From Paracoccaceae bacterium (lineage in GTDB: Bacteria > Pseudomonadota > Alphaproteobacteria > Rhodobacterales > Rhodobacteraceae), in NCBI GenBank assembly GCA_044377735.1, contig JBILYK010000008.1:828-64827 (forward strand): a stretch of 64,000 bases of DNA, read 5' to 3'. A program made the position numbers and the translations under genes. Shown here in pieces: positions 916 through 52,273 of the stretch. The notes beneath the pieces are model-generated. The model was not told the DNA's origin. It did not search any database and was given only the letters and a program-made list of their open reading frames with translations. Within the stretch, counting starts at the first letter, position 1. Each line of letters begins with the position of its first letter.

Positions 916-1010
916 GTGTGAAACGGACAGATTGAAAAGGAATTTGACGAAAACTATTCACCATTTTGCGCCAAACCGCCACGACATTTCACAGCTTGGG
1001 TAAATTGCGC

Positions 1011-1441: not shown

Positions 1442-1558
1442 GCGCAAGGGCCAGATACGGGCAAAGGGGCCGCTCATCAAGCCCTGAAGGGCATTCTTCG
1501 CTTGCGCTGCGACAACAGGGGCAATTGCGGCAGGGCGGACGTTGGGCAAAGCTGCACT

Positions 1559-18615: not shown

Positions 18616-18723
18616 GATTTTGTCCCCCCGAGCCCGCATCACAGTGCGGGTCTGTTCCCCGAGGACAATCTTGCGGGGGATTGTGGCATTTGCCAAGGAA
18701 AAGCGCAGGAACGTGCCGTGGCG

Positions 18724-20499: not shown

Positions 20500-20664
20500 G
20501 TATATCACCCGTCTTGTACCCTTTGCATCTATTCCCAAGGGACCACACCTGCAAGCCAAGTCCTGCAAGTGTGGAAGGCGGCCCCTCCAGGGCGCGGCGC
20601 CACACTGCGCCCCCCTTTTCCCCGCCGCTACCGCATGCAAGGTTACCCCCAAAGGGAGATCGCC

Positions 20665-34550: not shown

Positions 34551-35813
34551 TCAATCCTCGCGGCGTTCAACCTTCAACAGCCGTCCCATCACGATGGCGA
34601 TCGCCGCCGCCCCGAACGAGAACACCGCCCCCATCTTGGCCGCCTCTTGGGCCGCCCCCGCCGGGAAGGCGACGGTGGTGACAAACAAGGCCACGGTAAA
34701 GCCGATGGCCGCGACACAGCCCAAGACCCACAGATCGCGCATCTTCATCCCCGAAGGCAGGTCAAAGCCCATCTTCACTGCAAGCATCCCCATCAGGAAA
34801 ATGCCCACCGGCTTGCCAATGATCAGCCCGCCCAGAACCATCCACGTCGGCTCGCCAAAGGCGGAAAACACCACACCCGCGTTCAGAAGGCCAAAGAAGA
34901 ACAGCATCACCTCGACAAAGTATTTCAGGCGATGCTCGATCCAGTTCAGAAGGTCGGTCAGATGCGCCTCGGCCTCGGCAAAGATGCCATAGGGACGGTC
35001 GGCATGCGGGATGGTCGGCACGATGGGCAGAAGGCCCAAGGCCGGGTGAATCCCCGCATTGTGGAACCCATACCACGAGATCGCGCCTGCAATCGCATAG
35101 GGCCAGAAGCTGGCCTTTTGCCGCATCCAGGTCGAGTTCGGACGATCCTGCTTGCCGCGATCAAGATAGCGCGGCAGCCAGTTGGCCAGCCCATAGACCG
35201 CAACCGCCGCCGCCAGCGACATCAAAAGCCAAGCGGGTTGCAGATCCCCCGTAGGATAAAAGATCGCCAGAATGATCATGCCACCCGCGTCATCGGCAAT
35301 GGCCAACAACAGCAAGAATGGAATGGCCGGATGGCCCGCACCAAAGATGATGCGGCCAACCAGATACGAAAACGCAATATCGGTGGCGGTCGGGATGGCC
35401 CAGCCTTGCGCATACTGGTCAAAAACCCCCAGCATGGCACCGATCAAGAGATAGACCGCCGCCGGGCCAATCATCCCGCCCGCGGTGGCGATCAGCGGCG
35501 TAACCGCCTTTTTCCCCCGCAATTCCCCGTCTTTCAGGATGATGCCTTCCCAAACCTCTTTGGCGGCAATGGCAAAGAAGAACGCCATGCAGACATCGTT
35601 GATCAGGAAATGCAGCGTCAGCGTGCGATGCACCTCGCCGCCCACCTCATGCGCATGCCCTATGGGCGCATGATCCCAAAGCACGAAATGCACCAGATGC
35701 TGGTAGCTTTCGTTATGGGTATTTGCCCAGATCAGCGCCAAAACCGCGCCCGTCAACAACAACAACGAATATGTCGATATGACACTCCAGACTTTATACA
35801 TTCCCAGTCCCAT
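34551..35813 (-). CDS. nhaA: Na+/H+ antiporter NhaA
   Basis: The NhaA pattern includes LLLAIADDAGGMIILAIFY (E. coli has AIIDDLGAIIIIALFY). The start is either ATG 35813 (MGLGMYKVW) or ATG 35801. Confidence 0.9.
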   Translation of the reverse strand: MGLGMYKVWSVISTYSLLLLTGAVLALIWANTHNESYQHLVHFVLWDHAPIGHAHEVGGEVHRTLTLHFLINDVCMAFFFAIAAKEVWEGIILKDGELRGKKAVTPLIATAGGMIGPAAVYLLIGAMLGVFDQYAQGWAIPTATDIAFSYLVGRIIFGAGHPAIPFLLLLAIADDAGGMIILAIFYPTGDLQPAWLLMSLAAAVAVYGLANWLPRYLDRGKQDRPNSTWMRQKASFWPYAIAGAISWYGFHNAGIHPALGLLPIVPTIPHADRPYGIFAEAEAHLTDLLNWIEHRLKYFVEVMLFFFGLLNAGVVFSAFGEPTWMVLGGLIIGKPVGIFLMGMLAVKMGFDLPSGMKMRDLWVLGCVAAIGFTVALFVTTVAFPAGAAQEAAKMGAVFSFGAAAIAIVMGRLLKVERRED

Positions 35814-35832
35814 CGTTTGTTTTGGTAATTTT

Positions 35833-35864
35833 TCAAATTGAAAACACTGGTTTTTCACAAGTGT
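35833..35864 (-). terminator. Candidate intrinsic terminator of the acetate-locus operon
   Basis: On the minus strand: ACACTTG-tgaaaaa-CCAGTGT (6 of 7 pairs) followed by TTTTCAATTTG. It lies about 35 nt after the sensor-exonuclease stop, and the same region must hold the nhaA promoter. Confidence 0.45.
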
Positions 35865-35896
35865 CAAGCCAACGAAGAAAGACCCCGCATCATCCG

Positions 35897-37969
35897 TCAG
35901 TTCAGGTCCTTCAACAGCCGCCCATGTTTGCGCACCTCGGCCAGAACATCGCCAAAAAGGGCAAGGCCCCTGCCTTGGAGCATCGGCATCAGCTTCAGGA
36001 AGGCATCCGCTGTGGCCACAGTGTCGCCAATGGCGGTGTGGCGGTCGGCCTCGGGAATGGTGATGCCCAAACGATGCGTCAGCGCATCAAGGCTGTGGGT
36101 TTCGTGCTGGCCATAGATCACCGCCGACAAAAGCACCGTGTCCAACACCGGATGGTCAAAGGCCAGCCCCAAAGCGGCCTCACGCCGACGCAGGAACTGC
36201 ATGTCAAACGGCGCGTTATGGGCGATCAGTACCGCGCCTTCGGCAAATTTGTGGAACCGGCGCAAGGCATCGTCCACTTCGGGGGCATCAGCCACCATCG
36301 CTTCGGTGATGCCATGCACTTCGGTCGACGACAGCGGGATCGACCGGCGTGGATTGACCAGCGTGTCAAACACCTCGCCCTCCACGCGGCGGCCATTGAT
36401 GATGCGCACGGCGGCGATCTGCACGATCTCATCGCCCTGCTGCGGCAATAGCCCGGTGGTTTCGGTGTCAAAGGCCACATAGGTCAGGTTTTGCAGGGCC
36501 GTCTCGGCCACCTTGTCGGTGCGGGCACGCGACAAAAGGTCAAAGTCATAAACCACGGTGCGGATGACCGGCTTGGGCCGCGCCGTCGCGCGGCGCGCCT
36601 GCCGGATGGGCAGGCACAAAGACTGCCGCCCGCCCGCCACAGGCTCGGGCCAAAGCTCGGTCGCATGGCTCGCCAGCACAGACCGGCAGGCAATCTCGGA
36701 CACCATCGGGTCCAGCGGTTCGTCCAGCCAAACGTCCAGCGCGCCGATGCTGACCGGACCCCCGGTCCAACTCAGGCGGATCATCGCGCCGCTGTCCTCT
36801 TCGTCGATGCTCAGCGCCAAGGCATTGGCCTGAAGGTCATCTCGCAGATGCAGCGCGAGACCATCCAACAGCGAGATGATCTCGAACCCATTAGCGCGCA
36901 GCAGAATGTCGGCGGCCTTGGACGTCAGGGCCACGCCCTCGGCCTCCAGCCGCGCCTTCAGCCCATCAGCCAAATCCGAGGCGCGGGCCTGCGTCAGCCC
37001 GCCGCCCTCTATCCGGCCCTCGTCATGCCGCCGGGCAAGCTCGGTGACCGCCCGCGACAGCGCCGCCACCTCTTGGCGCAGCGCGCTGTCCATCGCGGCG
37101 GGCAGCGCCTCGCCGGCTGGGACAACTTCCATCAAGGTGGACAGGTTCGCCGCCGGACGGCGCAGACGGTCAAACACCTCGGCCAACAAAGCCTCGCGCC
37201 GGGCATGGGCGGTCAGATCGGCCGTCACATCGCGCAGTGTCAGCACATAGCCGGGGGCCGAGCCCTGCCCGCCCGGCGTCAGACGCATCCGCGCCGCCAA
37301 AACCCGCGCGCCGGTGGCGGTGGTACACAAAAGATCCGTCGCCGCATCCGCATCGCCCGTGGCAATCAACCGGTCATGGGCATGGCGAATGGGGCCTTCG
37401 CGCAGATAATCAAACAACCGTCGGTCCAGACCGGGGGATACCCCCGCCGCCATCAGATCAACGGCCGGTGTGTTGTAAAACGCCAGCGTATGATCGCCAG
37501 ACACCAGCAAGACCCCGACCGGCACATCCGAAAGCAGCGTCTCCAGCCGGGATTTCTCTTGCGACAACCGCTGCGTCTCGCGCATCACCGATTCCGCCAG
37601 CGCCGAACGGGTTTCGGTCAACCGCCGCGCAGCGGCTGTCGCGGCCGGGGCCAGATCGCCCAGATGGCGCGCAATCGCCACATCCATCTCGGATGTCACA
37701 TCCGAATGCGCCCGCGCGCGCAACGCGCCGGACAAGATATCAATCGGCTTGGCGACATGGGTGTCGAACAAGAACCAGACCCACGCCACCAACAGCAGCG
37801 CGACAAACCCCGCCACCACCCCAGCCTGCACAAAGCCGGGCAGCACCTCGGGCGTGCCAAGACGTTGGTAGCCCAGCGCCAGTCCCATGCCCATGGCCAC
37901 CACCACGCCCAGCCCAAGGGCGGCAAAGAACAGAAAAACCCTGACGCGCAGCGAAAGGCGGACGAGCAT
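35897..37969 (-). CDS. Membrane sensor protein: 2 TM + HAMP-like + PAS-like + degenerate HisKA/HATPase-like region + DnaQ-type 3'-5' exonuclease
   Basis: 690 aa. The exonuclease motifs are YVAFDTETTGL (Exo I), LIAHNAPFDMQFL (Exo II) and HTAIGDTVATADAF (Exo III, DEDDh). N-terminal hydrophobic helices are followed by PIDILSGALRA. See the findings for the pseudo-kinase reading. Confidence 0.8.
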   Translation of the reverse strand: MLVRLSLRVRVFLFFAALGLGVVVAMGMGLALGYQRLGTPEVLPGFVQAGVVAGFVALLLVAWVWFLFDTHVAKPIDILSGALRARAHSDVTSEMDVAIARHLGDLAPAATAAARRLTETRSALAESVMRETQRLSQEKSRLETLLSDVPVGVLLVSGDHTLAFYNTPAVDLMAAGVSPGLDRRLFDYLREGPIRHAHDRLIATGDADAATDLLCTTATGARVLAARMRLTPGGQGSAPGYVLTLRDVTADLTAHARREALLAEVFDRLRRPAANLSTLMEVVPAGEALPAAMDSALRQEVAALSRAVTELARRHDEGRIEGGGLTQARASDLADGLKARLEAEGVALTSKAADILLRANGFEIISLLDGLALHLRDDLQANALALSIDEEDSGAMIRLSWTGGPVSIGALDVWLDEPLDPMVSEIACRSVLASHATELWPEPVAGGRQSLCLPIRQARRATARPKPVIRTVVYDFDLLSRARTDKVAETALQNLTYVAFDTETTGLLPQQGDEIVQIAAVRIINGRRVEGEVFDTLVNPRRSIPLSSTEVHGITEAMVADAPEVDDALRRFHKFAEGAVLIAHNAPFDMQFLRRREAALGLAFDHPVLDTVLLSAVIYGQHETHSLDALTHRLGITIPEADRHTAIGDTVATADAFLKLMPMLQGRGLALFGDVLAEVRKHGRLLKDLN

Positions 37970-37970
37970 C

Positions 37971-38360
37971 TTAAGCCCCCGCGTCCAGAAGCCTGCGCAC
38001 TTCCTCCCGCAACTCTTTCAACTCGAACGGCTTGGTGATGAACCCATCGGCGCCAAGCGCCAGACCTTTGCGCCGCTCAATCGCCGACCCGCGCGCGGTC
38101 ATCATCAGGATCTTCACATCGGCAAGATTGGGATCCAGCCGCACACCTTGACAGATCTCATAACCCGAAGCGCCGGGCAGCATCACATCCAAAAGCACCA
38201 GATCAGGATGCGTGGCGCGAATACGCGGCAGCGCCTCGGCCCCATCGGCGACGCGCGAATGGTCATAGCCTTCGCGGGTCATCAGAAAGTCCAACGCCAA
38301 GGCGATGTTGTCCTCGTCTTCCACAACAAGGACACTGTGTCTGCGTTTGGTATCGGCCAT
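37971..38360 (-). CDS. Stand-alone response-regulator receiver domain
   Basis: 129 aa: VLVVEDEDNIA...PDLVLLDVMLPGASG...ILMMTARG...GADGFITKPF. The stop lies 1 nt before the sensor-exonuclease ATG. Confidence 0.9.
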   Translation of the reverse strand: MADTKRRHSVLVVEDEDNIALALDFLMTREGYDHSRVADGAEALPRIRATHPDLVLLDVMLPGASGYEICQGVRLDPNLADVKILMMTARGSAIERRKGLALGADGFITKPFELKELREEVRRLLDAGA

Positions 38361-38375
38361 CTCAGCCCTCCCGGT

Positions 38376-38894
38376 CTAGCCCCTGAGGCAAGCCGCCTCG
38401 TGCAATTCATCCCCAGCCACTGCGGTGACCCAAGCCCCCCCGGTCACAACACCCGCCTCATCAATCTTCATCCCGTCGACAATTGGTGTCTGGCGGTTCT
38501 CGGCACAGTCAAACACGATCAACGCGCTTTGCGGGTTCTTCCAGCGCGCAAAGCCAAAAACGGGCGCGGTCACCAATGTGTCCACCTGCGGATGGCGGGC
38601 CAGCTTGTTGGTATCCAGCGCCGAAAAGCTGGTTGTGATTGGCACCAGATAGGTCCAGGGCCGCAAAGGGGTGCTGGCAGCCTCGGCATTGGCCACCACA
38701 AAACCGGGCGGCAAAGCGGCGCTGACGCGGTTGAACCAGTCATATTCCAGCCAGACCGTTGCGCCAATCAGGCCCACCCCGGCGCTGACCGAGATCAGCC
38801 ATTTTGGCGCAGACGGCACCCAACGCCGAAACGCCCAAGCCATCAGGCCAAAGACCGCAGCGACAAGCAAGGATCCGATCAGTTCAAGTGCCAT
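38376..38894 (-). CDS. Hypothetical membrane protein (2 TM + ~110-aa extracytoplasmic domain)
   Basis: 172 aa. MALELIGSLLVAAVFGLMAWAF...WLISVSAGVGLIGATVWL is followed by a soluble domain containing two Cys. It is packed with 15-nt gaps between the DUF294 and receiver genes. I recognise no family. Confidence 0.6.
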   Translation of the reverse strand: MALELIGSLLVAAVFGLMAWAFRRWVPSAPKWLISVSAGVGLIGATVWLEYDWFNRVSAALPPGFVVANAEAASTPLRPWTYLVPITTSFSALDTNKLARHPQVDTLVTAPVFGFARWKNPQSALIVFDCAENRQTPIVDGMKIDEAGVVTGGAWVTAVAGDELHEAACLRG

Positions 38895-38909
38895 GGTTTT
38901 CGTCAGTCC

Positions 38910-40733
38910 TTAACATCTTGCGCCACGGGTGGACCCGATGGCGGATTGCATGGTGCGCACGACGACAAAGGCGTCGCGCAGGTGGCTGCGTTCGAAATCC
39001 GACAGATCCGAAGGCGCAATGAAATTGTCCGGCTTGTGCCCCGCCTTGACCCGGCGCAACTGATGCTGCAGCCGGGTTTCGGCGATCAGATCATAAGCCT
39101 CCAGCAAGTCGCGCGCGCCCGAGGCTGAAATCACCCCCGCCTCGGCCGCCGCCTCCAGCCGCGCGCGGGTGTTCACCGCCGGCAACTGGCCGATCAGCGC
39201 ATACACCCGCCCCAGATCGGTCACCGGCACCACGCCATTGTGCTTGAGATCAATGGTGTTCTTGTGCTCACCCGACCGGATGGTGGCAAAGCTGCGCAAC
39301 AGCCCCAAAGGCGGGGTGTGTTTCAGACTGTTGCCAATCATATGCGCCACGAAGATCGAGTTTTTCGCCGCCATCTCCAGCGTGTCAGCCTGCAGATCGG
39401 TGAAGAGGCTGGCCTTGCCGCCGATCGGGCGCAGGTCGAACATCACGCTCGCCAACATCTGCGCCATCGGATCGGGCGTGGTGATCCATTTGCCAAAATA
39501 CCCCCGCCAGACCGACTGGCGTTGGCACCAGTGCGGATTGGTCGCCATCATGTCGCCGGGGCAATAGAAATAGCCACACGCGTCCAGCCCATCGGAAACC
39601 CGCCGCGCGAGTTCGGCGAAATAGGCCATATCGGCATCCTTGGCGGCATCGTCGATGATCAGGCAATTGTCCTGATCCGACACGCCCGTCTGTTCCTGCC
39701 GCCCTTGGCTGCCACAGGCGGCCCAAAGATAGGGCACCGGTGCCGGGCCAAGCTCTGCTTCGGCAAAGGCCAACAGCCGCCGGGTGACGGTGTCGGCCAC
39801 ATCGGTGATCAGCCGCGTCACCACCTCATGCGCATGATTGCCCCCGACCAGTTGCACCAAAAGGCGCGGGATGCGGGCGGTGGCCGCCACCAACTCTTCA
39901 ACCGTCTGGGCCGTGGCCGCATCGCGCACCAACAGCGCCGAGGACACCGCCTGAAACCGGGTCAGGTCGGTCTGGGTGATCATCCCCACCAACTTGCCCG
40001 CTTCCACCACCGGCAAATGGCCGATGCGGTGCTCGATCATGATGTGCAAAATGTCCGACCCCAGACTGTCGGGCGTCAGCACCAAAGGATCATGCGCCAT
40101 GACGGCGCTGACCGGGCTTGCCGGATCAATCCCTTCGGCCAACACCTTGTTGGTGAAATCACGGGCCGTGACAATGCCCTGCAACTGCCCATCGGTGGCA
40201 ACGGCTAGGCAAGAGATATGGGCGTCACGCATGATCTGGGCAGCGGCGCGAATGGTGGTCTGCGGCGTCACCGCCACGGGCGGGCGCGAAATCAGATCAC
40301 CCACCTTGCGGGTTGAAATATCGGCTTCGCGGGATTCTTGGCTGCGGCCACGGTGAAAGAACCGCTCAAAGGCCGGGTAGCTGGCGATCAGGCGGCGGAA
40401 CTCCACCCCCGGCAGCATCAAGACGGTGCTGGCATCGGTGGTGCGCGCGGTGGTCACCGCGACCCCGTCCCGCATCAACCCGCGTTCGCCCAAGGAATTG
40501 CGCGGCCCAAGGATCGAGACGAGAACCCCCGAAGGGTCCATCACCTCGACCGCGCCTCGCATCACAAGGAACAAACCTTCCATCGGATCGCCTGCGGTGT
40601 AGATCACCTGATCGGCGGCCAAATTTCTGCGGCGGAAGGAAGTGGCGACTCGCGCCAACTCGTCCTGCGGCAGACTGTCGTAGGGGTGGACCGTTTCCAG
40701 AAATCCGATGATGGAGGAGACGTCGTCGCTCAT
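38910..40733 (-). CDS. cNMP-binding + CBS-pair + DUF294 nucleotidyltransferase protein
   Basis: Trimmed to MSDDVSSIIGFLE. It has a cNMP-binding domain (IYTAGDPMEGLFLVMRGAVEV), two CBS motifs, the pol-beta NTase motif ACGSQGRQEQTGVSDQDN and a DUF294_C-like tail. Confidence 0.85.
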   Translation of the reverse strand: MSDDVSSIIGFLETVHPYDSLPQDELARVATSFRRRNLAADQVIYTAGDPMEGLFLVMRGAVEVMDPSGVLVSILGPRNSLGERGLMRDGVAVTTARTTDASTVLMLPGVEFRRLIASYPAFERFFHRGRSQESREADISTRKVGDLISRPPVAVTPQTTIRAAAQIMRDAHISCLAVATDGQLQGIVTARDFTNKVLAEGIDPASPVSAVMAHDPLVLTPDSLGSDILHIMIEHRIGHLPVVEAGKLVGMITQTDLTRFQAVSSALLVRDAATAQTVEELVAATARIPRLLVQLVGGNHAHEVVTRLITDVADTVTRRLLAFAEAELGPAPVPYLWAACGSQGRQEQTGVSDQDNCLIIDDAAKDADMAYFAELARRVSDGLDACGYFYCPGDMMATNPHWCQRQSVWRGYFGKWITTPDPMAQMLASVMFDLRPIGGKASLFTDLQADTLEMAAKNSIFVAHMIGNSLKHTPPLGLLRSFATIRSGEHKNTIDLKHNGVVPVTDLGRVYALIGQLPAVNTRARLEAAAEAGVISASGARDLLEAYDLIAETRLQHQLRRVKAGHKPDNFIAPSDLSDFERSHLRDAFVVVRTMQSAIGSTRGARC

Positions 40734-40791
40734 CGTTGGGGTCCTTGCGGGGGTGCGCCCCCGGGGAGAAGTCCCCGGAGGCGCGAGAGGC

Positions 40792-42744
40792 TTAGTGCGA
40801 CTGAGCCTTGCCAGCGCCCGCAGGCACACGGATCGACTGGATCAGATCCTGCACGTCCTTCGGCGGAGCTTTGGTCATCATCGACACGATATAGGCCGTG
40901 GCGACGTTCAAAAGCGCACCGATCGGACCGAATGCCGCCGGAGAGATGCCGAACCAGTGGGCATCAGGCGTGTTCGGAAGCCAGTTGGTGCCTGGTACGA
41001 AGAACCAGCCCAGGTACATGAAGATGTAGACCGAGGTCGCAACCAGACCGACGATCATCCCTGCAATCGCCCCTTCTTTGGTGACGAAGGTCGAGAAGAT
41101 CCCCATCATCAGAACCGGGAAGATCGTCGCAGCAGCCAGACCAAAGGCCAAGGCCACCACCTGCGCGGCAAAGCCGGGCGGGTTCAGACCAAGCCAGGTC
41201 GCGAGCACAATGGCGAAAGCCATCGAGATACGCGCGGCCAGAAGTTCGCCCTTTTCGCTGATGTTCGGGTTTAAGGCACCCTTGATCAGGTCATGGCTGA
41301 TGGCGGAAGAGATCGCCAACAGAAGGCCCGCAGCGGTCGACAGCGCGGCGGCAAGACCACCGGCGGCGACAAGTGCGATAACCCAGCCGGGCAGAGCAGC
41401 GATTTCAGGGTTCGCAAGAACCATGATGTCGTTGTTCACGGTGGTCAGTTCGTTGCCGACAATGCCCTGTTCAGCCAGGGTTTTGCCGCCAATGCCGTTG
41501 GCCGGATCGGCCAAAGCGGCGTCAACTGCAGCCTGAGCCTCGACAATCGCGGCTTCCAGCGGTGCCTTGTCGGCATCGGCGGCAGCATCGGCCAAGGCCT
41601 TGTTCGCAGCACCCAGCGCCTTGTTGGCGTCAGCCACCGGCTTCTTCTCGTTGAAGTACTGGATCATGCCGTCGCCGTTCTTGTCGGCGAATGACAGAAG
41701 ACCCGTCTTTTCCCAGTTCCGGATCCAAGCGAGATCCGGGTTGCTGTCGATCTCGGCGATCGAAAGCGCGGGCTTCGAGAAGGTTTCGCCATCAATGGCG
41801 CCCGGCCAGAAGGTGGTGGTGATGTTCAGACGCGCCATCGAACCCACAGCCGGAGCCACGGTGTACAGCAGTGCGATGAACACCAGTGCCCAGCCAGCCG
41901 ACGAACGCGCGTCAGCCACTTTCGGCACGGTGAAGAAGCGGATGATGACGTGCGGCAGACCTGCCGTACCAATCATCAGCGACATGGTGATGAGGAACAT
42001 GTTGAGCATGTTCGTCGTGTCAGCGGTGTAGGCGGCAAAGCCCAGATCCGTCACCACTTGGTCAAGCTTGTCCAAGAAGTAAACGTCGCCACCGGTCGGC
42101 GCATATGACCCGATGAAGCCCAACTGTGGCAGGAAATGCCCCGTCAGGTTCAGCGAGATAAAGATCGCCGGGATGGTGTAGGCGATGATCAGCACGATGT
42201 ACTGCGCCACCTGGGTATAGGTGATGCCCTTCATGCCGCCGAACACGGCATAAGCGAACACGACGGCCGAACCGATCAACAGACCGGTCGTGGTCGACAC
42301 TTCCAAGAAGCGTGCAAAGGTCACGCCCACGCCCACCATCTGCCCGATCACATAGGTGATCGAGATGACAAGAAGGCAAACCACAGCCACCATACGGGCC
42401 GAGGTCGAGTAGAAGCGGTCGCCCACGAATTCCGGCACGGTGAACTTGCCGAATTTGCGCAGATAGGGGGCAAGCAGCAGTGCAAGCAGCACATAGCCGC
42501 CGGTCCAGCCCATCAGGAAGACCGAGTTGTTATAGCCCCCGAAGGCGATCAGACCTGCCATCGAGATAAAGGACGCTGCCGACATCCAGTCAGCCGCAGT
42601 CGCCATGCCGTTGACCACCGGGCCAACGCCCTGGCCTGCAGCATAGAATTCAGCCGTCGAACTGGCGCGAGCCCAGAACGCGATACCGAAGTAAAGCGCG
42701 AAGGACGCACCGATGACGAGAAGGTTGAGTGTAAACTGATCCAT
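40792..42744 (-). CDS. Sodium:solute symporter, VC_2705/ActP-like large subunit (acetate permease type)
   Basis: 650 aa from the SSS family (FYAAGQGVGPVVNGMATAADWMSAASFI...). It sits immediately downstream of a DUF4212 small-subunit gene and carries a hydrophilic insert of about 145 aa. Confidence 0.9.
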   Translation of the reverse strand: MDQFTLNLLVIGASFALYFGIAFWARASSTAEFYAAGQGVGPVVNGMATAADWMSAASFISMAGLIAFGGYNNSVFLMGWTGGYVLLALLLAPYLRKFGKFTVPEFVGDRFYSTSARMVAVVCLLVISITYVIGQMVGVGVTFARFLEVSTTTGLLIGSAVVFAYAVFGGMKGITYTQVAQYIVLIIAYTIPAIFISLNLTGHFLPQLGFIGSYAPTGGDVYFLDKLDQVVTDLGFAAYTADTTNMLNMFLITMSLMIGTAGLPHVIIRFFTVPKVADARSSAGWALVFIALLYTVAPAVGSMARLNITTTFWPGAIDGETFSKPALSIAEIDSNPDLAWIRNWEKTGLLSFADKNGDGMIQYFNEKKPVADANKALGAANKALADAAADADKAPLEAAIVEAQAAVDAALADPANGIGGKTLAEQGIVGNELTTVNNDIMVLANPEIAALPGWVIALVAAGGLAAALSTAAGLLLAISSAISHDLIKGALNPNISEKGELLAARISMAFAIVLATWLGLNPPGFAAQVVALAFGLAAATIFPVLMMGIFSTFVTKEGAIAGMIVGLVATSVYIFMYLGWFFVPGTNWLPNTPDAHWFGISPAAFGPIGALLNVATAYIVSMMTKAPPKDVQDLIQSIRVPAGAGKAQSH

Positions 42745-42759
42745 CAGTCCCGGTTCCCT

Positions 42760-43017
42760 TTATTCTTCCACGCCATGGGCGCGGTCGATCCCGTTCATCA
42801 CCTTCGCGTAGACGAAGATGAGGATCAGGAACACATAGATCGATCCGTTCTGAGCGAACCAGAACCCGATATCGGCGCCGCCGACGTGGATTCCGGACAG
42901 CGCAGGACGAAGCAGGATGCCCAGCCCGAACGAGCAAGCGAACCAGATCACCATCGAAATAGCGATGACCCGAATATTCGCTGCCCAGTAAGCGCCGGCA
43001 GATGACTTGTCCGCCAT
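42760..43017 (-). CDS. DUF4212 small subunit of solute:sodium symporter
   Basis: Trimmed to an 85-aa protein, MADKSSAGAYWAANIRVIAISMVIWFACSFGLGILL...WFAQNGSIYVFLILIFVYA. It has two TM helices and the typical position before the large subunit. Confidence 0.85.
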   Translation of the reverse strand: MADKSSAGAYWAANIRVIAISMVIWFACSFGLGILLRPALSGIHVGGADIGFWFAQNGSIYVFLILIFVYAKVMNGIDRAHGVEE

Positions 43018-43087
43018 GAGTGTCTCTCCCTGGTTGGTTTCTAAGCTGCACTGCAGCCCCGGGGGATCCGGGGCAACAGGCCTTTTC

Positions 43088-43759
43088 TCAAGCCGCCACT
43101 TGCCCGACGACGGACCCAAGCGCCGTGCGGATTTCTGCGATGGGACCCATCGCGTCAATCTTGTGCAAAACACCTTTGCCCGCGTAATAGGCAATCAGCG
43201 GCGCCGTCTGGGCGTGATAGGCTTTCAGCCGCTCGCGCACAGTTTCGGCATTGTCGTCGGCCCGACGCTTCATGTCGGTGCCGCCGCATTTGTCACAAAC
43301 CCCCGCTTTCGCGGGCAGTTTGAATTGGTCATGATAGCCTTCACCGCATGTGGCGCAGGTGTAGCGGCCCGAGATGCGGCCCACCATGGCCTCGTCATCG
43401 ACCTCAAGGCTGATCACGGCAGTGACGCGCTGGCCATTGTCGGCCAACAGCCCGTCAAGCGACGCGGCCTGCCCATCGGTGCGCGGAAAGCCATCCAGGA
43501 TGATGCCTTTGGCCACATCGGGCTGGGCCATACGGTCTTTCAGAATGGCCAGCACGATGTCATCGCTGACAAGCTGACCCGCCTCCATCACCGCCTTCGC
43601 CCGCTTGCCCGCGTCCGAGCCCGCGGCCACAGCGGCGCGCAGCATGTCGCCGGTCGACAACTGCACCAGACCGAAATCCTCTTCCAGCATGCGCGCTTGC
43701 GTGCCTTTGCCGGCCCCCGGGGGGCCAAGCAAGATCAGAACCGTGGAATTGCTCGCCAT
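43088..43759 (-). CDS. adk: Adenylate kinase (Cys4 zinc-lid form)
   Basis: GPPGAGKGTQ, and lid CATCGEGYH...CDKCGG. The ATG lies 6 nt after the acs stop. Confidence 0.93.
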   Translation of the reverse strand: MASNSTVLILLGPPGAGKGTQARMLEEDFGLVQLSTGDMLRAAVAAGSDAGKRAKAVMEAGQLVSDDIVLAILKDRMAQPDVAKGIILDGFPRTDGQAASLDGLLADNGQRVTAVISLEVDDEAMVGRISGRYTCATCGEGYHDQFKLPAKAGVCDKCGGTDMKRRADDNAETVRERLKAYHAQTAPLIAYYAGKGVLHKIDAMGPIAEIRTALGSVVGQVAA

Positions 43760-43765
43760 GGGCCC

Positions 43766-45730
43766 TTAACCCTTGTTCATGCGGTTGGCGATCAGATCTT
43801 CCACCACCGAAGGATCGGCCAGTGTCGAGGTGTCGCCCAAGCTGCCAAAGTCATTCTCGGCAATCTTGCGCAGGATACGGCGCATGATCTTGCCCGAACG
43901 GGTCTTCGGCAGGCCGGGGGCCCACTGGATCAGGTCAGGCTTGGCAATCGGGCCGATTTCGGTGCGCACCCACGCCTCCAGCTCTTTGCGCAGGGCGTCC
44001 GTCGGCTCGACCCCGTTCATCAAGGTGACATAGGCATAGATGCCTTGACCCTTGATGTCGTGGGGGTAACCCACAACCGCGCTTTCGGCGACCTGCGGAT
44101 GCGCAACCAGCGCGGATTCTACTTCGGCGGTGCCCATGCGATGACCAGACACGTTGATCACGTCATCGACGCGCCCGGTGATCCAGTAATAGCCATCTGC
44201 ATCGCGGCGGCAGCCGTCCCCGGTGAAATAATAGCCCGGATACTGGCTGAAATAAGCCTCTTCAAACCGCGCATGATCGCCCCACAGGGTGCGCATCTGG
44301 CCCGGCCAGCTGTCCGCAATGCACAAGACGCCATCGGTTTCGATTTTGTCCTGCACCTTGGCGGTGGCCGGATCCAGCACGACGGGGGTGACACCAAAGA
44401 ACGGCTTGGTGGCAGACCCCGGCTTTTGCGGAATGGCACCCGGCAAGGGGGTGATCAGGTGGCCGCCGGTTTCGGTTTGCCAGAAGGTGTCAACGATCGG
44501 GCATTTCCCTTTGCCGACATGGGTGTTGTACCAGTTCCATGCCTCGGGGTTGATCGGCTCGCCCACCGAACCCAGAAGCTTCAGGCTCGACAGGTCGTGC
44601 TTGTTCACCCAGTCCGCACCCATGCCCATCAGGCTGCGGATCGCGGTCGGCGCGGTGTAGAACTGGTTGACCTTGTGCTTGGCGCAAACTTCCCAGAAGC
44701 GGCCCGCATCCGGATAGGTCGGCACGCCTTCGAACATGATCGTGGTCGCACCATTGGCCAAGGGGCCATAGACGATATAGCTGTGCCCGGTGACCCAACC
44801 CACATCGGCGGTGCACCAAAACACATCGCCCTCTTGGTAATCAAAGGTCATCTGATGCGTCATCGACGCATAGACCAGATAGCCGCCGCTCGTGTGAACC
44901 ACACCCTTCGGCTTGCCGGTGGAACCCGAGGTGTAAAGGATGAACAGCGGATCTTCCGCGCCCATTTCGACATAAGGGCAATAGGGCTTGGCCGCCGCCA
45001 TCTCGGCCTTGACGTCCACGTCGCGGCCTTCGGTCCAGCTGGTCTGATCGCCGGTGTGCTTGACCACAAGGCATTTCACCCGGTCGTTGCAATGCATCAA
45101 GGCCTGATCGGCGTTGGCCTTCAGAGCCGTTTTCTTGCCACCGCGCGGCGCGAAATCGGCGGTGATCACCAGCTTGGCTTCCGAGTCATTGATGCGGTTG
45201 GCCAAAGCGTCAGGCGAAAAGCCTGCGAAGACGATCGAATGAATGGCCCCAATCCGGGCGCAGGCCAGCATGGCATAGGCGGCCTCGGGGATCATCGGCA
45301 AATAGATCACCACCCGGTCGCCGCGCTGCACGCCCTGCGCCTTCAGCACATTGGCCATGCGGCAGGTCTGCTCCAACAACTGGGCATAGGTGATGTGCTG
45401 GGCGGGCGTTGCGGGGCTGTCCGGCTCCCAGATGATCGCGGTCTGGTTGGCGCGCGCGACCATATGGCGGTCAATGCAATTGGCCGACACGTTCAGCGTG
45501 CCATCCTCATACCACTTGATCGACACCTTCCCAAGGTCGAAATTGGCATCCTTGATCTTGGTGTAATCCTTGATCCAATCGATGCGCTTGCCCTGCTCGG
45601 CCCAAAAGGCTTCGGGATCCGCGACGGACGCCGCATACATCGTGGCATAGCTTTCGGCGGTCACATGCGCCTTCGCGATGAACTCTTTCGACGCCGAATA
45701 CACACCCGTTGTCTGACCGGTTTCTGCCAT
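43766..45730 (-). CDS. acs: Acetyl-CoA synthetase
   Basis: Trimmed to [17 protein letters not shown], with GGAGGAGG upstream. Motifs include [18 protein letters not shown] and [11 protein letters not shown]. Confidence 0.95.
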
Positions 45731-45874
45731 TGGATCCTCCTCCAGTTTGAACAGCATGATCTCGCCATCCGCACGGTCCGCGCCAAGAACGCGGATCCCC
45801 CCGTAAATGCGATCATAACGGAAGTGTAAAAGAAGTGCTAACTCTAATTGCAATATGGATTTTCCTGTAAATTC

Positions 45875-45896
45875 GTTGACAGATAATGCAGTCAAC
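45875..45896. promoter_or_regulatory. Inverted repeat in the AT-rich acs upstream region
   Basis: GTTGAC-agataatgca-GTCAAC lies within an unusually AT-rich 110 bp (about 45820-45930). A further GCAGTTGAC is at 45932-45940, and TGTAAATT occurs twice (45867, 45899). Confidence 0.3.
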
Positions 45897-46088
45897 TATG
45901 TAAATTTTCCGAAAAGTGATTGAGAAATGACGCAGTTGACCGCGCCATGATCGGCGGAAACCGGCGCAAGGTCAGTTTGTCGCAGGGGGTCATCTTGAAA
46001 ACCGGCCTTGCAATGATAGCGCAAGCATCCTTGGGCCTGCGCCAAAGCCATGCCGCAGTGCAACATCTATGTATGCAAACGATTCGAC

Positions 46089-47753
46089 TCAGACCTTGGG
46101 GGCCACGCCCAGCGCGGCCGGAACGGCGGCAAGATCGGCCACGAACAAAACCTGATCGCCCCGCACCCCCGCCTGATGCAACACCCGCCGCACCTCGGCA
46201 CTGGCGCCCGAAATCACCAGCCGCCCCTCTTTGCGCGCCATCTTGCGCGCCAAAAGCGCAAAGGAATAGGCCCCCGAACTGTCGATCAACGGCACGGCGG
46301 CAAAATCCACCACCAGCGCGCGCGGCCGCTCAGACACCTGATCCAAGACCGACCCCAGCCGCGCCGCCGCGCCAAAGAACCATGGGCCGTTCAGGTGATA
46401 CACCACCACATCGGTGTCACCATCCCGGTCCAGATCCATCTCGGGCAGGGGCAGGCGGCTTTCGGCAATCGTCGTGCCCGCCGACATGCGGTTGATAAAC
46501 ACCAACCCCGCCAGCGCGAACCCCACCACAATGCCCTCGGTCAGGTCCCGAAACACCACCAGCCCAAAGGTCGCCAAAAGCACCACCGCATCCGCCCGCG
46601 AATGGCGCGCCAGATGCCACAGCTCTTCCTTCTCGGCCATGTTCCACGCCACCACGGCCAAAACCCCGGCCAAGGCGGCCAAGGGGATGAACCCGGCCAA
46701 AGGTGCGGCCACCAGCATGAAGGCCAGCACAAACACCGCATGCAGCATCCCCGACACCGGCCCGCGTGACCCGGCGCGCACATTGGTGGCCGTGCGCGCG
46801 ATGGTGCCGGTCACGCAGAACCCACCGAACAAGGGCGTCACCACATTGGCCACCCCTTGCGCCATCAATTCCGCATTGGGGCGGTGACGGCGGCCCGACA
46901 TCCCATCGGCCACCACCGCCGACAACAGGCTTTCAATCGCACCAAGCAGCGTGAACGACAGCGCCCAAGGCAGCGCCGCCTGCACAGCCGCCAGCCCGAA
47001 ATCAGGCAAAGCAGGCGCAGGCGGGCTGCGCGGCAACTCGCCAAAGCGGCTGTAAATCGTCTCCACCGGCAGGCCCAGCACCGCCACCACCACCGAGGCC
47101 AAAGCCACTGCAATCAACAGGTTCGGCGCCCGTGGTGCCCAGCGCTTGACCCCGACAATCAGCGCCACCGTGCCCGCCGCGACCATCAGCGCCGCCGGGT
47201 TCAGACTGCCCCGCGCCGCCCACAACGCCTCAACCTTGTGCAAAATCTCGGCAGGCTCTGCGCCGGGCAGGGTCAGACCCAGAAGGTCCTTGATCTGGCT
47301 GGCAAAGATGATGACCGCGATGCCTGCCGTGAACCCCACCGTCACCGGATAGGGAATGAACCGCACATAAGACCCCGCGCGCAACGCCGCCAACACCGCC
47401 AGAAACACCCCCGACATCAGCGTGGCCAGCAAAAGCCCCTCAACCCCAATCTGCGCCACGCAGGCCGAGACCAGCACAATGAACGCCCCCGCAGGCCCCC
47501 CGACCTGATACCGCGACCCGCCAAGGGCCGATACGATGAACCCGCCGATGATCGTGGTGAACAGCCCCCGTTCCGGGCTGACGCCGCTCGCAATCGCAAT
47601 CGCCATCGACAAGGGCAGCGCCACAATCGCCACCGTCAACCCCGCCAGCGCATCGGCGCGCAGATCAGCGGGCCGATAGCCCTCGCGCAGCGTGGTCACA
47701 AGCTTGGGCAGAAACTCCGAAGGGCTGTGGGCAGGCGTTGGATTAAGGGCCAT
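46089..47753 (-). CDS. SulP-family anion transporter with C-terminal STAS domain
   Basis: 554 aa: DALAGLTVAIVALPLSMAIAIASG... The C-terminal part, VVVYHLNGPWFFGAA...LVVDFAAVPLIDSSG, is a STAS domain. Confidence 0.9.
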   Translation of the reverse strand: MALNPTPAHSPSEFLPKLVTTLREGYRPADLRADALAGLTVAIVALPLSMAIAIASGVSPERGLFTTIIGGFIVSALGGSRYQVGGPAGAFIVLVSACVAQIGVEGLLLATLMSGVFLAVLAALRAGSYVRFIPYPVTVGFTAGIAVIIFASQIKDLLGLTLPGAEPAEILHKVEALWAARGSLNPAALMVAAGTVALIVGVKRWAPRAPNLLIAVALASVVVAVLGLPVETIYSRFGELPRSPPAPALPDFGLAAVQAALPWALSFTLLGAIESLLSAVVADGMSGRRHRPNAELMAQGVANVVTPLFGGFCVTGTIARTATNVRAGSRGPVSGMLHAVFVLAFMLVAAPLAGFIPLAALAGVLAVVAWNMAEKEELWHLARHSRADAVVLLATFGLVVFRDLTEGIVVGFALAGLVFINRMSAGTTIAESRLPLPEMDLDRDGDTDVVVYHLNGPWFFGAAARLGSVLDQVSERPRALVVDFAAVPLIDSSGAYSFALLARKMARKEGRLVISGASAEVRRVLHQAGVRGDQVLFVADLAAVPAALGVAPKV

Positions 47754-48417: not shown

Positions 48418-50706
48418 CTAAAGCGGATTATCACCGCGCACCTTGACCATCGCCTTGCCACGCACCGCCGAGGGCCAGCGCAGATGCACCAGCCGGTCGC
48501 CCGCGCCTTGCTCGACCTCGACATAGGGCTGCACCCATTGCACCGTGCCCCCGGCATTGCGCGCCGGGCCTTCCAGAACATGGCTTTCCACATTGCGCGC
48601 CCGCGCCCCAAAGGGCAGATAATCGCCCCCATCCACCACCCAGGTCTCGGCGGCGGTGTTTTGCGTGTGCTCCACCAAAATCGGGCTGACCGTGGCCTGC
48701 GTGATGCCGTTGAAGGTGTTGTTGGCAAAGATCAGATTGCGATAGTTGCCGGTGTTCAGCGTGGCATGCGTGGTGTCGACCATCTCTACCCGGTCAATCG
48801 CGCCGGTGCTGTTGCGAAACACATTGCCCGTCACCGACAGACCCGCAATCGAATGGCCGCTGCCCTTGGGGGCCAGCACCAAGAACCGAAACGCAGAGCT
48901 GGTGTTGGAACACAAAAACAAATTGCCGGTGATCGTCAGCCCGCCAAAAGTATATCCCGATGAGAAACTGGGCACCTGATCGCGCTCATTCGACACTTCG
49001 ATAAAGCAGTTGTCGATGTAATTGCCCACCACAAAGCCCCGCACATTGCGCGTACAAAACACCAACCCCGCCCGACGCAGACCCAAAGGCTCTTCATCCT
49101 CGGAAAACAGGTGATTACCCAGAATGATATGGCTACCCCCGGCCAAGACGCCAAAATGCGCAAAATAGGTCCCGCGGTTGTTGCGGATCTTGGCGTCATT
49201 GGCATTCACGTTAAACCCCACCGTGGTGCGGTTCTGCACGGTCAGCGAAAACTCCCAGCCATTGAACAGGCAGCTTTCAATCACAATGCCCTGACACCCC
49301 TCTTTGATCGAGGTCACACCGCGATCCTTGGGGAAGGAGAACACGCAATCGGTGATGCGAAACAGCTTGCCCGTCAACGGCAACATCACGCCGCTCGCAG
49401 TCTGACCGCAGCTGAATTCAATGTCCGAAATCTCAAACCGGCTCAGCTCGGCAAAGCCGCTGAAATCCAGCATGTAGCGATAGCGCTGAAAGGTGAAGGT
49501 CCGCGTCGCCGCCCCGCCCCACATCGGATCGGTCAATTCGATGGTCGCGGCCGCCACGTTCTTTGACGCGACATAAATCTCGCGCCCCACCCCGGTGCCC
49601 GAAATCCGCGCCCCCACCGGAATGGCGGCGATATTGGCCACCCCGGTCAGCGTTTTGGGATTGGCCGGGTTATAGGTGGCCACCGCCGTGATCGTCTGGG
49701 TGTTCCACGCACTGCCGGGGCTTGCCTGCAACAGCCCATGGGTCAAAACCCGGCGCTGGCCGAAACTCGTCAGACCAGAAAGCGCCGCCACATCAATCGG
49801 CTGCGTCAACTCCACCCGACGCCCCGACAGATCCAACGCCACATGGTCGGTGAAATAGAACAGCGCCTGCAAGGCCTTGCGGAACCCCGCCAATTCACCG
49901 CCAAAGGCCGCCGCATAGGTATCCAGATTGAAATTGCGTGTGCAGGCCAGCCGCTGATCCTCGGGCATCACCACGGTGCCTTCAAACTTCACCGGGTTGT
50001 CAAAGGTGAAATGACTGGCCAGCCGGTAGGTGCCGGGCGACACCACCACCGTCTTGCCCGCCGCCGCCGCATCGGCGGCGTCAAAGGCGGCCCAGTCATT
50101 GGCCACCCCATCGCCCACTGCGCCAAAATCGCGCACATCCACCCAGTCGAACATTTCCGAATGGAAAATCGCCGTGACATCCTCGATCACGATGTCATCA
50201 ATCCGCACAACACCCCCGGTTGGCCCGGTCAGATCCAACCCCATATGGCCGTAAACGGGCGCCGTGCCCCAGACCATATCCACCCCCGTCCGGTTGCCCG
50301 ACGCGATGATCGCACTCACCGTCACCACCTGCCCATAGCCCGTCAGCGCCACACCCGGCCCCTGCTGATTGGCCGCCGACACATTGTTGCCCGCACTGTT
50401 GCCCGCCCAAGCGGCGATCCGCACCGTCGGCAATGGCCCGCTGATCGCCTTGACCCGCGCGGTGACCCGCAGATAAAGCCCCGGCTGAAACGGAATCTGC
50501 TGAAACGACCGCAGTTTTTGCGTTGCGGCCGTCTTTTGCAGCTCCAGACAGCCCTCAAAATCCTGATCTGACGGCACAAAGGCGGCGTTCGGCTGGCCAG
50601 CATAGCTGCCCTGCCCCGCCCGCCCATCCTCGCGCGACCACAGCGCCAGCCCTGCCGAAAACGGCGGCGGCATCAAGACCAGACCTTCGGTAATCGCCTT
50701 GTTCAT
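48418..50706 (-). CDS. Right-handed beta-helix protein with pectate-lyase-3/tailspike-like domain
   Basis: Trimmed to MNKAITEGLVLMPPP (762 aa), with no signal peptide. After a jelly-roll-like N-domain of about 190 aa comes VDVRDFGAVGDGVANDWAAFDAADAAAAGKTVVVSPGTYRL, the hallmark opening of Pectate_lyase_3. Repetitive N/G/T/V-rich beta-helix coils follow. Confidence 0.75.
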   Translation of the reverse strand: MNKAITEGLVLMPPPFSAGLALWSREDGRAGQGSYAGQPNAAFVPSDQDFEGCLELQKTAATQKLRSFQQIPFQPGLYLRVTARVKAISGPLPTVRIAAWAGNSAGNNVSAANQQGPGVALTGYGQVVTVSAIIASGNRTGVDMVWGTAPVYGHMGLDLTGPTGGVVRIDDIVIEDVTAIFHSEMFDWVDVRDFGAVGDGVANDWAAFDAADAAAAGKTVVVSPGTYRLASHFTFDNPVKFEGTVVMPEDQRLACTRNFNLDTYAAAFGGELAGFRKALQALFYFTDHVALDLSGRRVELTQPIDVAALSGLTSFGQRRVLTHGLLQASPGSAWNTQTITAVATYNPANPKTLTGVANIAAIPVGARISGTGVGREIYVASKNVAAATIELTDPMWGGAATRTFTFQRYRYMLDFSGFAELSRFEISDIEFSCGQTASGVMLPLTGKLFRITDCVFSFPKDRGVTSIKEGCQGIVIESCLFNGWEFSLTVQNRTTVGFNVNANDAKIRNNRGTYFAHFGVLAGGSHIILGNHLFSEDEEPLGLRRAGLVFCTRNVRGFVVGNYIDNCFIEVSNERDQVPSFSSGYTFGGLTITGNLFLCSNTSSAFRFLVLAPKGSGHSIAGLSVTGNVFRNSTGAIDRVEMVDTTHATLNTGNYRNLIFANNTFNGITQATVSPILVEHTQNTAAETWVVDGGDYLPFGARARNVESHVLEGPARNAGGTVQWVQPYVEVEQGAGDRLVHLRWPSAVRGKAMVKVRGDNPL

Positions 50707-51185
50707 TCCAAACCTCGTGAAGCTGAGCGCGGGGGCAGGTCCAGCCAAACGCTGACCCGATCGCACAAGACGCTATGCGCAAAGGGTTAACACCCCACAG
50801 CCCCACCGCGCGCTGCCCAACCCAAAGGCCGCGCCCGACGACTGCGCGCTTCGACTGCGCGCTTCCGCCTAAATCCCGCCAGCTGACCCTGATCGCCGGC
50901 CGCGCAGCGGGCAACAATCGCCAAAGCCCCGCACCGATTCGCTTTTTGGCATGGCCGGGCCCGAATCCATCGGCCCTCAGCCCGCCAACCGGCCACCCCC
51001 AGCGCCCAAGTGTTGCCAAATTGACGAAAGCACTGGCTGTATCAGCCCTTCTTCTCTCGCTGCCGCAGCAAGGCAATTGTGTTGAAAATGGCAAGCTGAT
51101 CTACTCAACTCCAAGACGTCTGCAGGCTCTACGGCGTCGCCTCTGCTCTGTCTCACAGACGCCCAACACTCAACTGGAGTTCATT

Positions 51186-51365: not shown

Positions 51366-51392
51366 TCCTATCCGGGTCACGTCAAGACTGGG

Positions 51393-51422
51393 GCGGCAGG
51401 TTTCCTGCCGCTCTTTTCTTTT
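51393..51422 (+). terminator. Rho-independent terminator
   Basis: GCGGCAGG-ttt-CCTGCCGC (perfect 8-bp stem) followed by TCTTTTCTTTT. Confidence 0.75.
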
Positions 51423-51511
51423 GCGCGAAAGGCCGCCGGTGCGCCTGACCCGGCTTGCGGCCCAGCCCTTGGCACCCCATCTCTAACCTGTCTCAACATA
51501 TAAGGTGCGCC

Positions 51512-52210: not shown

Positions 52211-52273
52211 CCGGCCCCCAACAGGCGGGGGCTGTCCATCCCCCCCATCCCCGCCTATTCTCACCGGGCAAGC

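Follow-up and report, generated by a model that had tools for sequence, protein, structure and literature searches.

A 64,000-nucleotide (nt) stretch of a Paracoccaceae genome (contig JBILYK010000008.1 of assembly GCA_044377735.1; hereafter the window) carries at positions 35,897 to 45,730 a run of eight genes, in which acetate activation and monocarboxylate transport stand next to a set of putative regulators that ends in a membrane-bound exonuclease. All eight open reading frames (ORFs) lie on the minus strand, with spacers, from acs to the exonuclease gene, of 6, 70, 15, 58, 15, 15 and 1 nt (Table 1). The original prediction, made from the sequence of the window, had proposed these genes at these positions and spacings; our ORF check agrees, and so do the Pfam and NCBIfam calls with the gene content it gave. 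The start codons it chose for acs (ATG 45730) and for the DUF294 gene (ATG 40733) are supported by the lengths of homologues and by the hairpin that fills positions 40755-40784. In the family scan the ActP and MctC models were more distant matches to the symporter than its own family. The symporter also contains an Ala/Asp-rich low-complexity stretch at about amino acids (aa) 365-430, which appears to be a variable insertion: orthologues measure 584-594 aa, the TIGR03648 model spans 547 positions, and in many loci the tblastn alignments are interrupted. The eight genes would form an operon for acetate (monocarboxylate) uptake and activation that ends in a four-gene control module.

Table 1. 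Genes, protein domains and intergenic features of the locus, in window positions. TM, transmembrane.
Feature	Positions	Strand	Evidence
acs, acetate--CoA ligase, 654 aa	43766..45730	-	TIGR02188 AcsA equivalog, 1017 bits; Pfam ACAS_N, AMP-binding, AMP-binding_C
adk, adenylate kinase with Cys4 lid, 223 aa	43088..43759	-	NF001380, 266 bits; Pfam ADK, ADK_lid
DUF4212 small symporter subunit, 85 aa	42760..43017	-	PF13937, TIGR03647
VC_2705-family sodium/solute (monocarboxylate) symporter, 650 aa	40792..42744	-	TIGR03648, 794 bits
cNMP-binding, two CBS, DUF294 and DUF294_C protein, 607 aa (putative "writer")	38910..40733	-	Pfam
Protein with two TM helices and beta-rich domain, 172 aa	38376..38894	-	Outside any named family
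Receiver-only response regulator, 129 aa	37971..38360	-	PF00072, E 5e-25
Exonuclease protein, aa 1-147: two TM helices, HAMP-like helical region	37529..37969	-	AlphaFold, alignments
Exonuclease protein, aa 148-248: PAS	37226..37528	-	PAS_4, E 4e-4
Exonuclease protein, aa 249-460: degenerate histidine-kinase module	36590..37225	-	Foldseek, motif alignments
Exonuclease protein, aa 461-690: YDFDLL linker and DEDDh exonuclease (putative "eraser")	35897..36589	-	RNase_T, E 5e-37
GC-rich hairpin, 7-bp core, in the 70-nt adk/DUF4212 spacer	43048..43081	-	Fold -25.4 kcal/mol
13-bp GC hairpin without T-tract, in the 58-nt symporter/DUF294 spacer	40755..40784	-	-31.7 kcal/mol, z = -3.5
Intergenic region upstream of acs, 358 nt	45731..46088	-	Promoter candidate and TTTACA repeats

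The last gene of the run encodes a 690-aa protein that the original prediction had read as TM, HAMP and PAS at one end and a DnaQ-like exonuclease at the other, with an unassigned middle. Both ends are borne out, and the middle, whose nature that reading had missed, is a degenerate histidine kinase. In the AlphaFold model (pLDDT 71.8), two TM helices joined by an outer loop of ~5 residues lead into a long helical HAMP-like stalk, followed by a PAS fold (152-247), a two-helix hairpin (249-322), an alpha/beta domain (327-460) and the exonuclease (497-689). PAS, PAS_9 and PAS_4 matches in homologues support the PAS domain. Foldseek matched the N-terminal two-thirds of the model to the PAS-histidine kinases WalK, YF1, VicK, ThkA and HK853 (E 1e-10 to 1e-7), and the C-terminus to the exonucleases PolC, epsilon, DinG and RNase T; by sequence, the C-terminal domain matches RNase_T at aa 498-657 and the PolC exonuclease domain (2p1j) with E 2.5e-27.

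Residues 249-460 are modeled as a DHp-like two-helix hairpin and a CA-like alpha/beta domain. The first DHp-like helix carries, in the H-box slot, the motif [D/E]-x-x-R-R-P-x-A-N-L, and in 65 diverse long-type sequences the phospho-acceptor position is never His, being Glu in 37, Asp in 15 and another residue in 13. The phosphatase motif H-E/D-x-x-T/N reads D-R-L-R-R in the window protein, its T/N slot taken by Arg. Pfam gave no HATPase_c match in the window protein, and the alignment shows none of the N, G1, F and G2 boxes. The pseudo-kinase long forms have gained conserved features of their own, W401, G403, H435, W440 and the YDFDLL linker, and the DEDDh residues D501, E503, D589, H644 and D649 are invariant (65/65). 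A histidine-kinase fold without the phospho-acceptor His or the ATP boxes, fused to an invariant DEDDh site, therefore predicts a membrane sensor in which the kinase module is dead and the exonuclease live. The degenerate kinase would also explain why a receiver gene adjoins the exonuclease gene.

The first 485 residues of this protein belong to a large family, with 857 clusters at E < 1e-3 and 149 at E < 1e-30 in a library clustered at 50% identity. Members come in three architectures: a long form (about 650-720 aa) with the middle module between PAS and exonuclease; a short form (about 465-500 aa, and 464-479 aa in those sampled), in which the exonuclease joins the PAS domain directly; and an intermediate form of about 560 aa (561-562 aa in those sampled). 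One metagenomic protein, P0339 (1154 aa), combines the sensor, a cut-down exonuclease, CBS, DUF294 and DUF294_C in a single polypeptide. We considered it as a Rosetta-stone fusion and gave it no weight: it is a singleton from one 5-kb contig with a truncated exonuclease domain, and may be an assembly or deletion artefact.

To place the locus among other genomes we scanned species representatives with the sensor part of the exonuclease protein, using a 6-sequence alignment of sensor regions (a 17-sequence alignment was too divergent), and recovered 80 loci, mostly from Paracoccaceae and including Rhodobacter capsulatus. The window proteins were then compared with these loci by tblastn, the count of complete arrangements being limited to the 53 loci with at least 7.9 kb upstream. 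All seven upstream genes occur in the same order and on the same strand in 48/53. Gene by gene, acs is present in 50/53 loci, adk in 54/58, DUF4212 in 60/63, the symporter in 61/63, DUF294 in 72/73, the 2-TM protein in 74/77 and the receiver in 76/79. The eight-gene arrangement is far beyond chance, and the original prediction's expectation that the downstream genes co-occur with the acetate genes holds. The closest genome, "Paracoccaceae bacterium RE-M30," is 90% identical over the sensor region, and an annotated Thioclava chromosome carries an identical nine-gene run, the additional gene encoding a SulP/STAS anion transporter. In the window this gene (46089-47753, minus strand) lies directly upstream of acs, as it does in at least 23 related loci; it also lies by the Shinella cassette. 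Genes downstream of the exonuclease gene vary between genomes, which indicates that the conserved unit ends there.

The receiver encoded 1 nt upstream of the exonuclease is predicted to be a working phospho-acceptor, because its acidic pocket, Asp58, Thr88 and Lys110 are conserved (among orthologues E14 in 77/77, D15 in 76/77, and D58, T/S88 and K110 each in 78/78). Annotated plasmid and chromid records show that its presence varies with the form of the exonuclease. Marivivens and Aestuarium keep the order of the window minus adk, with a long exonuclease and a receiver, and Paracoccus yeei, which has ActP/DUF485 in place of DUF4212/VC_2705 and lacks the 2-TM protein, likewise has a long exonuclease (646 aa) and a receiver. 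Two other groups share the order DUF4212, symporter, DUF294, 2-TM protein, exonuclease and lack the receiver: Ruegeria sp. TM1040, Tateyamaria and Limimaricola, with the short form, and Shinella and Rhizobium oryzihabitans, with the intermediate form. Neither form has the pseudo-kinase module, and none of the five sampled (0/5) has a receiver gene beside it. Long forms also occur without a receiver, in Ciceribacter, Neorhizobium, Alkalisalibacterium and two further loci (L072 and L077); four of the five loci are of the DUF4212 type and L072 is divergent. In this small sample the RRPxANL and a WPE motif are eroded. We therefore rejected the rule that a pseudo-kinase is present if and only if there is a receiver, and retain it in one direction only: where there is a receiver, the exonuclease is of the long form.

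A further variant offers the strongest hint of a single pathway made up of kinase, receiver and pseudo-kinase-exonuclease, with the enzyme pair as its output. In Paracoccus denitrificans PD1222, P. methylovorus and Cupriavidus necator a paralogous five-gene module starts with CBS-DUF294 and an 81-aa membrane protein; a genuine SSF-HisKA-HATPase kinase (PDEN_RS25405 in P. denitrificans), the receiver (PDEN_RS25410) and, last, a long exonuclease follow (in PD1222 on plasmid 1, locus L082, 4843-11743; the other kinase-bearing loci are L096 and L083). None of these loci encodes a DNA-binding output protein. Both Paracoccus species have a gene for an MFS transporter just upstream, and Cupriavidus has acs just downstream. 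The kinase resembles the CrbS/CbrA/RpuS type, in which an N-terminal SSS-family domain is joined to a kinase, and here stands in the position of the symporter, beside receiver and exonuclease; the window, by contrast, has a plain transporter and no kinase, and the partner is receiver-only instead of a DNA-binding regulator. In a Kiloniellales metagenome-assembled genome (locus L076), DUF4212 is directly preceded, at 3905-4675, by a histidine-kinase core that has 40% identity with the SSF-kinase of Paracoccus. This locus further contains the 2-TM protein, a receiver and a long exonuclease, and may represent an intermediate form of the two variants.

The 172-aa protein encoded between DUF294 and the receiver had no Pfam or NCBIfam family in any of nine diverse orthologues. 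Its AlphaFold model is confident (pLDDT 93.9) and consists of two TM helices, a six-stranded beta domain and a C-terminal helix, with two invariant cysteines; the best fold match in the Protein Data Bank, Haemophilus influenzae protein E, reached E 0.08. The gene is found in every DUF4212-type locus examined of Rhodobacterales and Rhizobiales and in that of one gammaproteobacterium, and is absent from the ActP/DUF485 and kinase-bearing variants. Because the loop between the helices is positively charged, the beta domain probably faces the periplasm. Its tie to DUF4212 loci, together with a sensor that has nearly no periplasmic loop of its own, suggests that the 2-TM protein couples the DUF4212 symporter to the sensor.

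The DUF294 protein matches its Pfam domains with E 9e-16 to 3e-47. The catalytic GS...DxD residues that the original prediction expected are present, G341-S342, D353-Q-D355 and D433 being invariant in 10 sequences, one of them a 30%-identical Paracoccus paralogue. By hhalign against single Escherichia coli sequences, GlnD aligned at E 0.0076, with the GxxGRxE...SDxD motif in register, and GlnE at E 0.14, both at low probability. This fits, though weakly, the published grouping of DUF294_C with the substrate-binding domains of GlnD and GlnE in the KNTase_C clan (PMC3710099). DUF294 resembles GlnD/GlnE in its pol-beta motif, in a helical "substrate-binding" domain assigned to that clan and in its metabolite-binding control domains; unlike them it has no removal domain, either HD or a second nucleotidyltransferase.

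Conserved structure is also found between the genes. The 7-bp GC hairpin that the original prediction placed in the adk/DUF4212 spacer is present; for the symporter/DUF294 spacer it had given two hairpins, and we find one, of 13 bp, which is probably an attenuator or a stabilizer of the mRNA 3' end. At both junctions all the loci printed (14/14) have a GC-rich hairpin, with differing stem sequences, and the median minimum free energy is -0.40 kcal/mol per nt at the adk/DUF4212 junction (55 loci) and -0.50 at the symporter/DUF294 junction (60 loci), where a U-rich tract follows in some of the loci printed. The remaining spacers are typically 2-15 nt across loci. Conserved hairpins at two junctions point to three expression blocks, namely acs-adk, DUF4212 with the VC_2705 symporter, and the four-gene control module; the last four genes are probably translationally coupled and dependent on read-through. 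A hairpin and T-tract proposed downstream of the exonuclease gene did not hold up: folding after the stop codon is no better than that of shuffled sequences (z = +0.69), and the sole terminator-like match, 35962-35977, lies inside the coding region. Downstream of the locus an NhaA gene occupies 34551-35867, an arrangement common only to the window and its closest relative.

Upstream of acs, a promoter scan gave a sigma-70-like candidate, TTAGCA-18-TATGAT, at 45812-45841 on the minus strand. The hexamer TTTACA occurs three times on the same strand (45899-45904, 45866-45871 and 45825-45830), at spacings of 33 and 41 nt, just before the promoter candidate. The first two repeats (ATTTACA...TTTACA) and the -35/-10-like boxes are conserved across 51 aligned orthologous upstream regions, and the repeats are likely a binding site for some regulator; they are unlike the CrbR motif. 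The CrbR-type motif itself (GACN4GTC or TACN4GTC) was found neither in the 358-nt region nor in the two internal spacers, and no CrbR-like gene was found among the window genes scanned.

The enzymatic core of this module has been described elsewhere. The original prediction stated that a DUF294 protein and a DnaQ-like exonuclease recur next to acs and actP, as at PA3232-PA3235, and the literature confirms this (PMC9765439; PMC9927547); growth on propionate induces PA3232-PA3235 (PMC9765439). In P. putida, PP_0354 (cNMP, two CBS, nucleotidyltransferase) and PP_0353 (RNase_T) make up an operon bound directly by ErdR (PMC9927547; 10.64898/2026.09.07.749794), and the pair is among the genes with the strongest dependence on MxtR/ErdR (CrbS/R). 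Deletion of PP_0353 impairs growth on pyruvate, as deletion of actP-I does, and deletion of PP_0354 does not (PMC9927547; 10.64898/2026.09.07.749794). One member of the pair shows cofitness with the DUF4212 symporter in both Shewanella and P. stutzeri, which led to the guess that it is needed for symporter expression, and the DUF4212 subunit is required for symporter function (Price et al., 10.1101/072470). The original prediction held that no biochemical role is known for the pair, and a September 2026 preprint (10.64898/2026.09.07.749794) still says as much. The claim of an undescribed system has to be narrowed: the DUF294/exonuclease core is already published, as a CrbS/R (MxtR/ErdR) target, and the form in the window is a widespread undescribed variant of it. 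In the searches made, the sensor/pseudo-kinase fusion, its receiver partner and the 2-TM protein were not found described.

The P. putida, P. aeruginosa and gammaproteobacterial VC_2705 cassettes are like the window in having a cNMP-2xCBS-nucleotidyltransferase and a DEDDh exonuclease, encoded side by side, and in their linkage to acs and to a monocarboxylate symporter of the SSS family that has a small subunit. They differ in that their exonuclease is described by its RNase_T domain only (the closest stand-alone NCBIfam exonuclease model, PRK07740, is 244 aa), whereas the window exonuclease adds a 2TM-HAMP-PAS sensor and a pseudo-kinase; in that their transcription needs the DNA-binding CrbR/ErdR; and in that the window adds adk and inserts the receiver-only regulator and the unnamed 2-TM protein, two genes that here separate the exonuclease gene from DUF294. 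The control module is best explained as an alphaproteobacterial, membrane-wired form of the DUF294/DEDDh pair (PP_0354/PP_0353, PA3233/PA3232).

The pseudo-kinase and its receiver are reminiscent of DivL in Caulobacter, a pseudo-kinase that reads the phosphorylation state of the single-domain regulator DivK (PMC4211667). Both systems have a PAS-containing histidine-kinase fold that has lost its phospho-acceptor His, and a receiver-only partner with an intact phospho-acceptor. DivL, however, has Tyr at the His position and keeps its CA domain, whereas the exonuclease protein has Asp or Glu; and DivL controls another kinase (CckA), whereas the output here would be a covalently fused exonuclease. 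The likeness is one of general fold and of co-occurrence with a receiver.

The domain anatomy and the co-occurrence of the genes are solid. The model with the best support, which still falls somewhat short of probable, is that the module works as a writer/eraser switch for the uptake of monocarboxylates, with gating inputs from the membrane and from the phospho-receiver. Under the control of its cNMP and CBS (adenylate) domains, the nucleotidyltransferase would add a nucleotidyl mark that lowers symporter function or expression, and the exonuclease, held in the membrane on its 2TM-HAMP-PAS stalk, would take the mark off. The exonuclease would be gated by HAMP/PAS, by the transporter and by the receiver; the receiver's phosphorylation state would be read by the dead histidine-kinase module, acting as its docking site, in a reverse signaling of the DivL/DivK type, with the kinase that feeds the receiver encoded elsewhere; the 2-TM beta-domain protein would couple the sensor to the DUF4212-type transporter. 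An inhibitory mark relieved by the eraser fits the differing effects of the PP_0353 and PP_0354 deletions on pyruvate. As for the mark, a nucleic-acid 3' end, such as that of the transporter mRNA, is a serious candidate, favored by the closeness of the exonuclease to proofreading domains; protein-linked AMP or UMP is also a reasonable possibility, favored by the GlnD-like features of the writer; a free signaling oligonucleotide seems rather unlikely. In its most specific form, which we regard as speculative and unlikely, a symporter-type kinase or acetyl phosphate would act through the receiver and the dead kinase module on the exonuclease, which would remove AMP or UMP placed by DUF294 on the transporter complex. 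Acetate uptake would then have a fast brake responsive to adenylate charge; the module would count as a new class of two-component output, and the exonuclease as the first known de-nucleotidylylase of its fold.

Several points weigh against the writer/eraser switch. The chemistry of the pair is itself a prediction from motifs, and the link from DUF294 to GlnD/GlnE is weak, the GlnD alignment having an hhalign probability of 5%. Sequence and profile searches gave no solved relative of DUF294, returning only CBS/cNMP domains or spurious designed repeats. To our knowledge, a DEDDh exonuclease acting on a protein-linked nucleotide is without precedent. No kinase was found in the window, either by tblastn with a genuine SSF-kinase or by Pfam on 20 neighboring genes, and a kinase-core match lies within 10 kb in just 4/81 loci. 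The five long forms without an adjacent receiver imply that the receiver is dispensable or encoded elsewhere. The case for co-transcription of the eight genes is one of spacing. Finally, both P. putida deletions reduce growth on propionate, a poor fit to simple antagonism (PMC9927547; 10.64898/2026.09.07.749794).

The same enzymes could act purely post-transcriptionally, the nucleotidyltransferase tailing and the exonuclease trimming the 3' end of the transporter or acs mRNA and so setting its stability, with no protein modified; the hairpin conserved directly upstream of DUF294 would form that 3' end. The exonuclease domain is indeed very close to nucleic-acid 3'-5' exonucleases, as its RNase_T and PolC matches indicate, 60 loci keep stable hairpins behind the transporter gene, the transporters that the module follows belong to different families (VC_2705, ActP, MFS), and two groups have raised, as speculation, an influence on expression or on mRNA (10.1101/072470; PMC9927547). 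GlnD/GlnE-like nucleotidyltransferases with a KNTase_C-type domain, however, are known to act on proteins or small molecules and not on RNA (PMC3710099), the P. putida pair works in trans on an unlinked actP-I, and intergenic GC hairpins are common in GC-rich genomes, another being found at the adk/DUF4212 junction. We consider this account possible but doubtful. It is improbable that DUF294 instead makes a linear or cyclic oligonucleotide messenger, which the exonuclease would degrade as Orn does pGpG, its lifetime set by the membrane and receiver inputs. A pol-beta-fold nucleotidyltransferase with cNMP and CBS domains paired with a DEDDh nuclease would suit such a role, as would the kinase-bearing variant, in which, lacking a DNA-binding output, the enzymes themselves must be the output; but no effector or receptor is conserved in the loci, there is no CD-NTase similarity, PADLOC gave only generic domain matches, and the exonuclease is nearer to proofreading domains than to Orn or RNase T. 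An anti-phage defense role was rejected, the PADLOC matches being to DEDDh, receiver and cNMP domains at the domain level only.

Two simpler accounts fare worse. The kinase-like module might be an active kinase or phosphatase for the adjacent receiver, making the locus an ordinary two-component system with an appended exonuclease. The retained fold, the neighboring receiver gene and a weak HisKA match in one distant homologue would allow this; yet there is no His at or beside the H-box position in any of the 65 diverse members, the phosphatase motif has been replaced, and HATPase_c and its N, G1 and G2 boxes are missing, which leaves an active kinase very improbable. Many database records name the exonuclease protein "DNA polymerase III subunit epsilon," and one could take the four downstream genes for unrelated neighbors, a repair or proofreading paralogue beside a receiver from another pathway. 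Synteny effectively refutes this: order and strand are kept in 48/53 genomes, and the conservation spans Rhodobacterales, Rhizobiales, Kiloniellales, one gammaproteobacterium and one betaproteobacterium. The spacers between these genes are 1-15 nt, the exonuclease has a membrane-sensor architecture, and the P. putida exonuclease mutant phenocopies the transporter mutant (PMC9927547).

The DUF294/exonuclease pair is conserved across Proteobacteria, and deletion studies have not explained its chemistry. The alphaproteobacterial form adds constraints: an exonuclease predicted to sit at the membrane, a place as terminal output of a putative phospho-relay that has no DNA-binding member, and an accessory protein specific to one type of transporter. 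These constraints supply testable partners, the receiver with the pseudo-kinase and the 2-TM protein with the DUF4212 symporter, and tractable hosts are at hand in Rhodobacter capsulatus, Paracoccus denitrificans and Ruegeria sp. TM1040. The writer/eraser switch, if true, would reveal a new layer in the regulation of short-chain fatty-acid uptake and show the histidine-kinase fold in a new use.

Elsewhere in the window no tRNA genes were found, and Rfam, which had no match inside the locus, gave a single match, to bacterial RNase P RNA class A (1005-1443, minus strand, 273 bits). Two proteins of ~780 aa are encoded on the minus strand at 48418-50766 and 51377-53722, one with a short pectate-lyase-like match and the other without a Pfam family. 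At 16723-20652, also on the minus strand, a second AMP-binding acyl-CoA synthetase-like gene adjoins a fused ABC transporter (transmembrane and ATPase).

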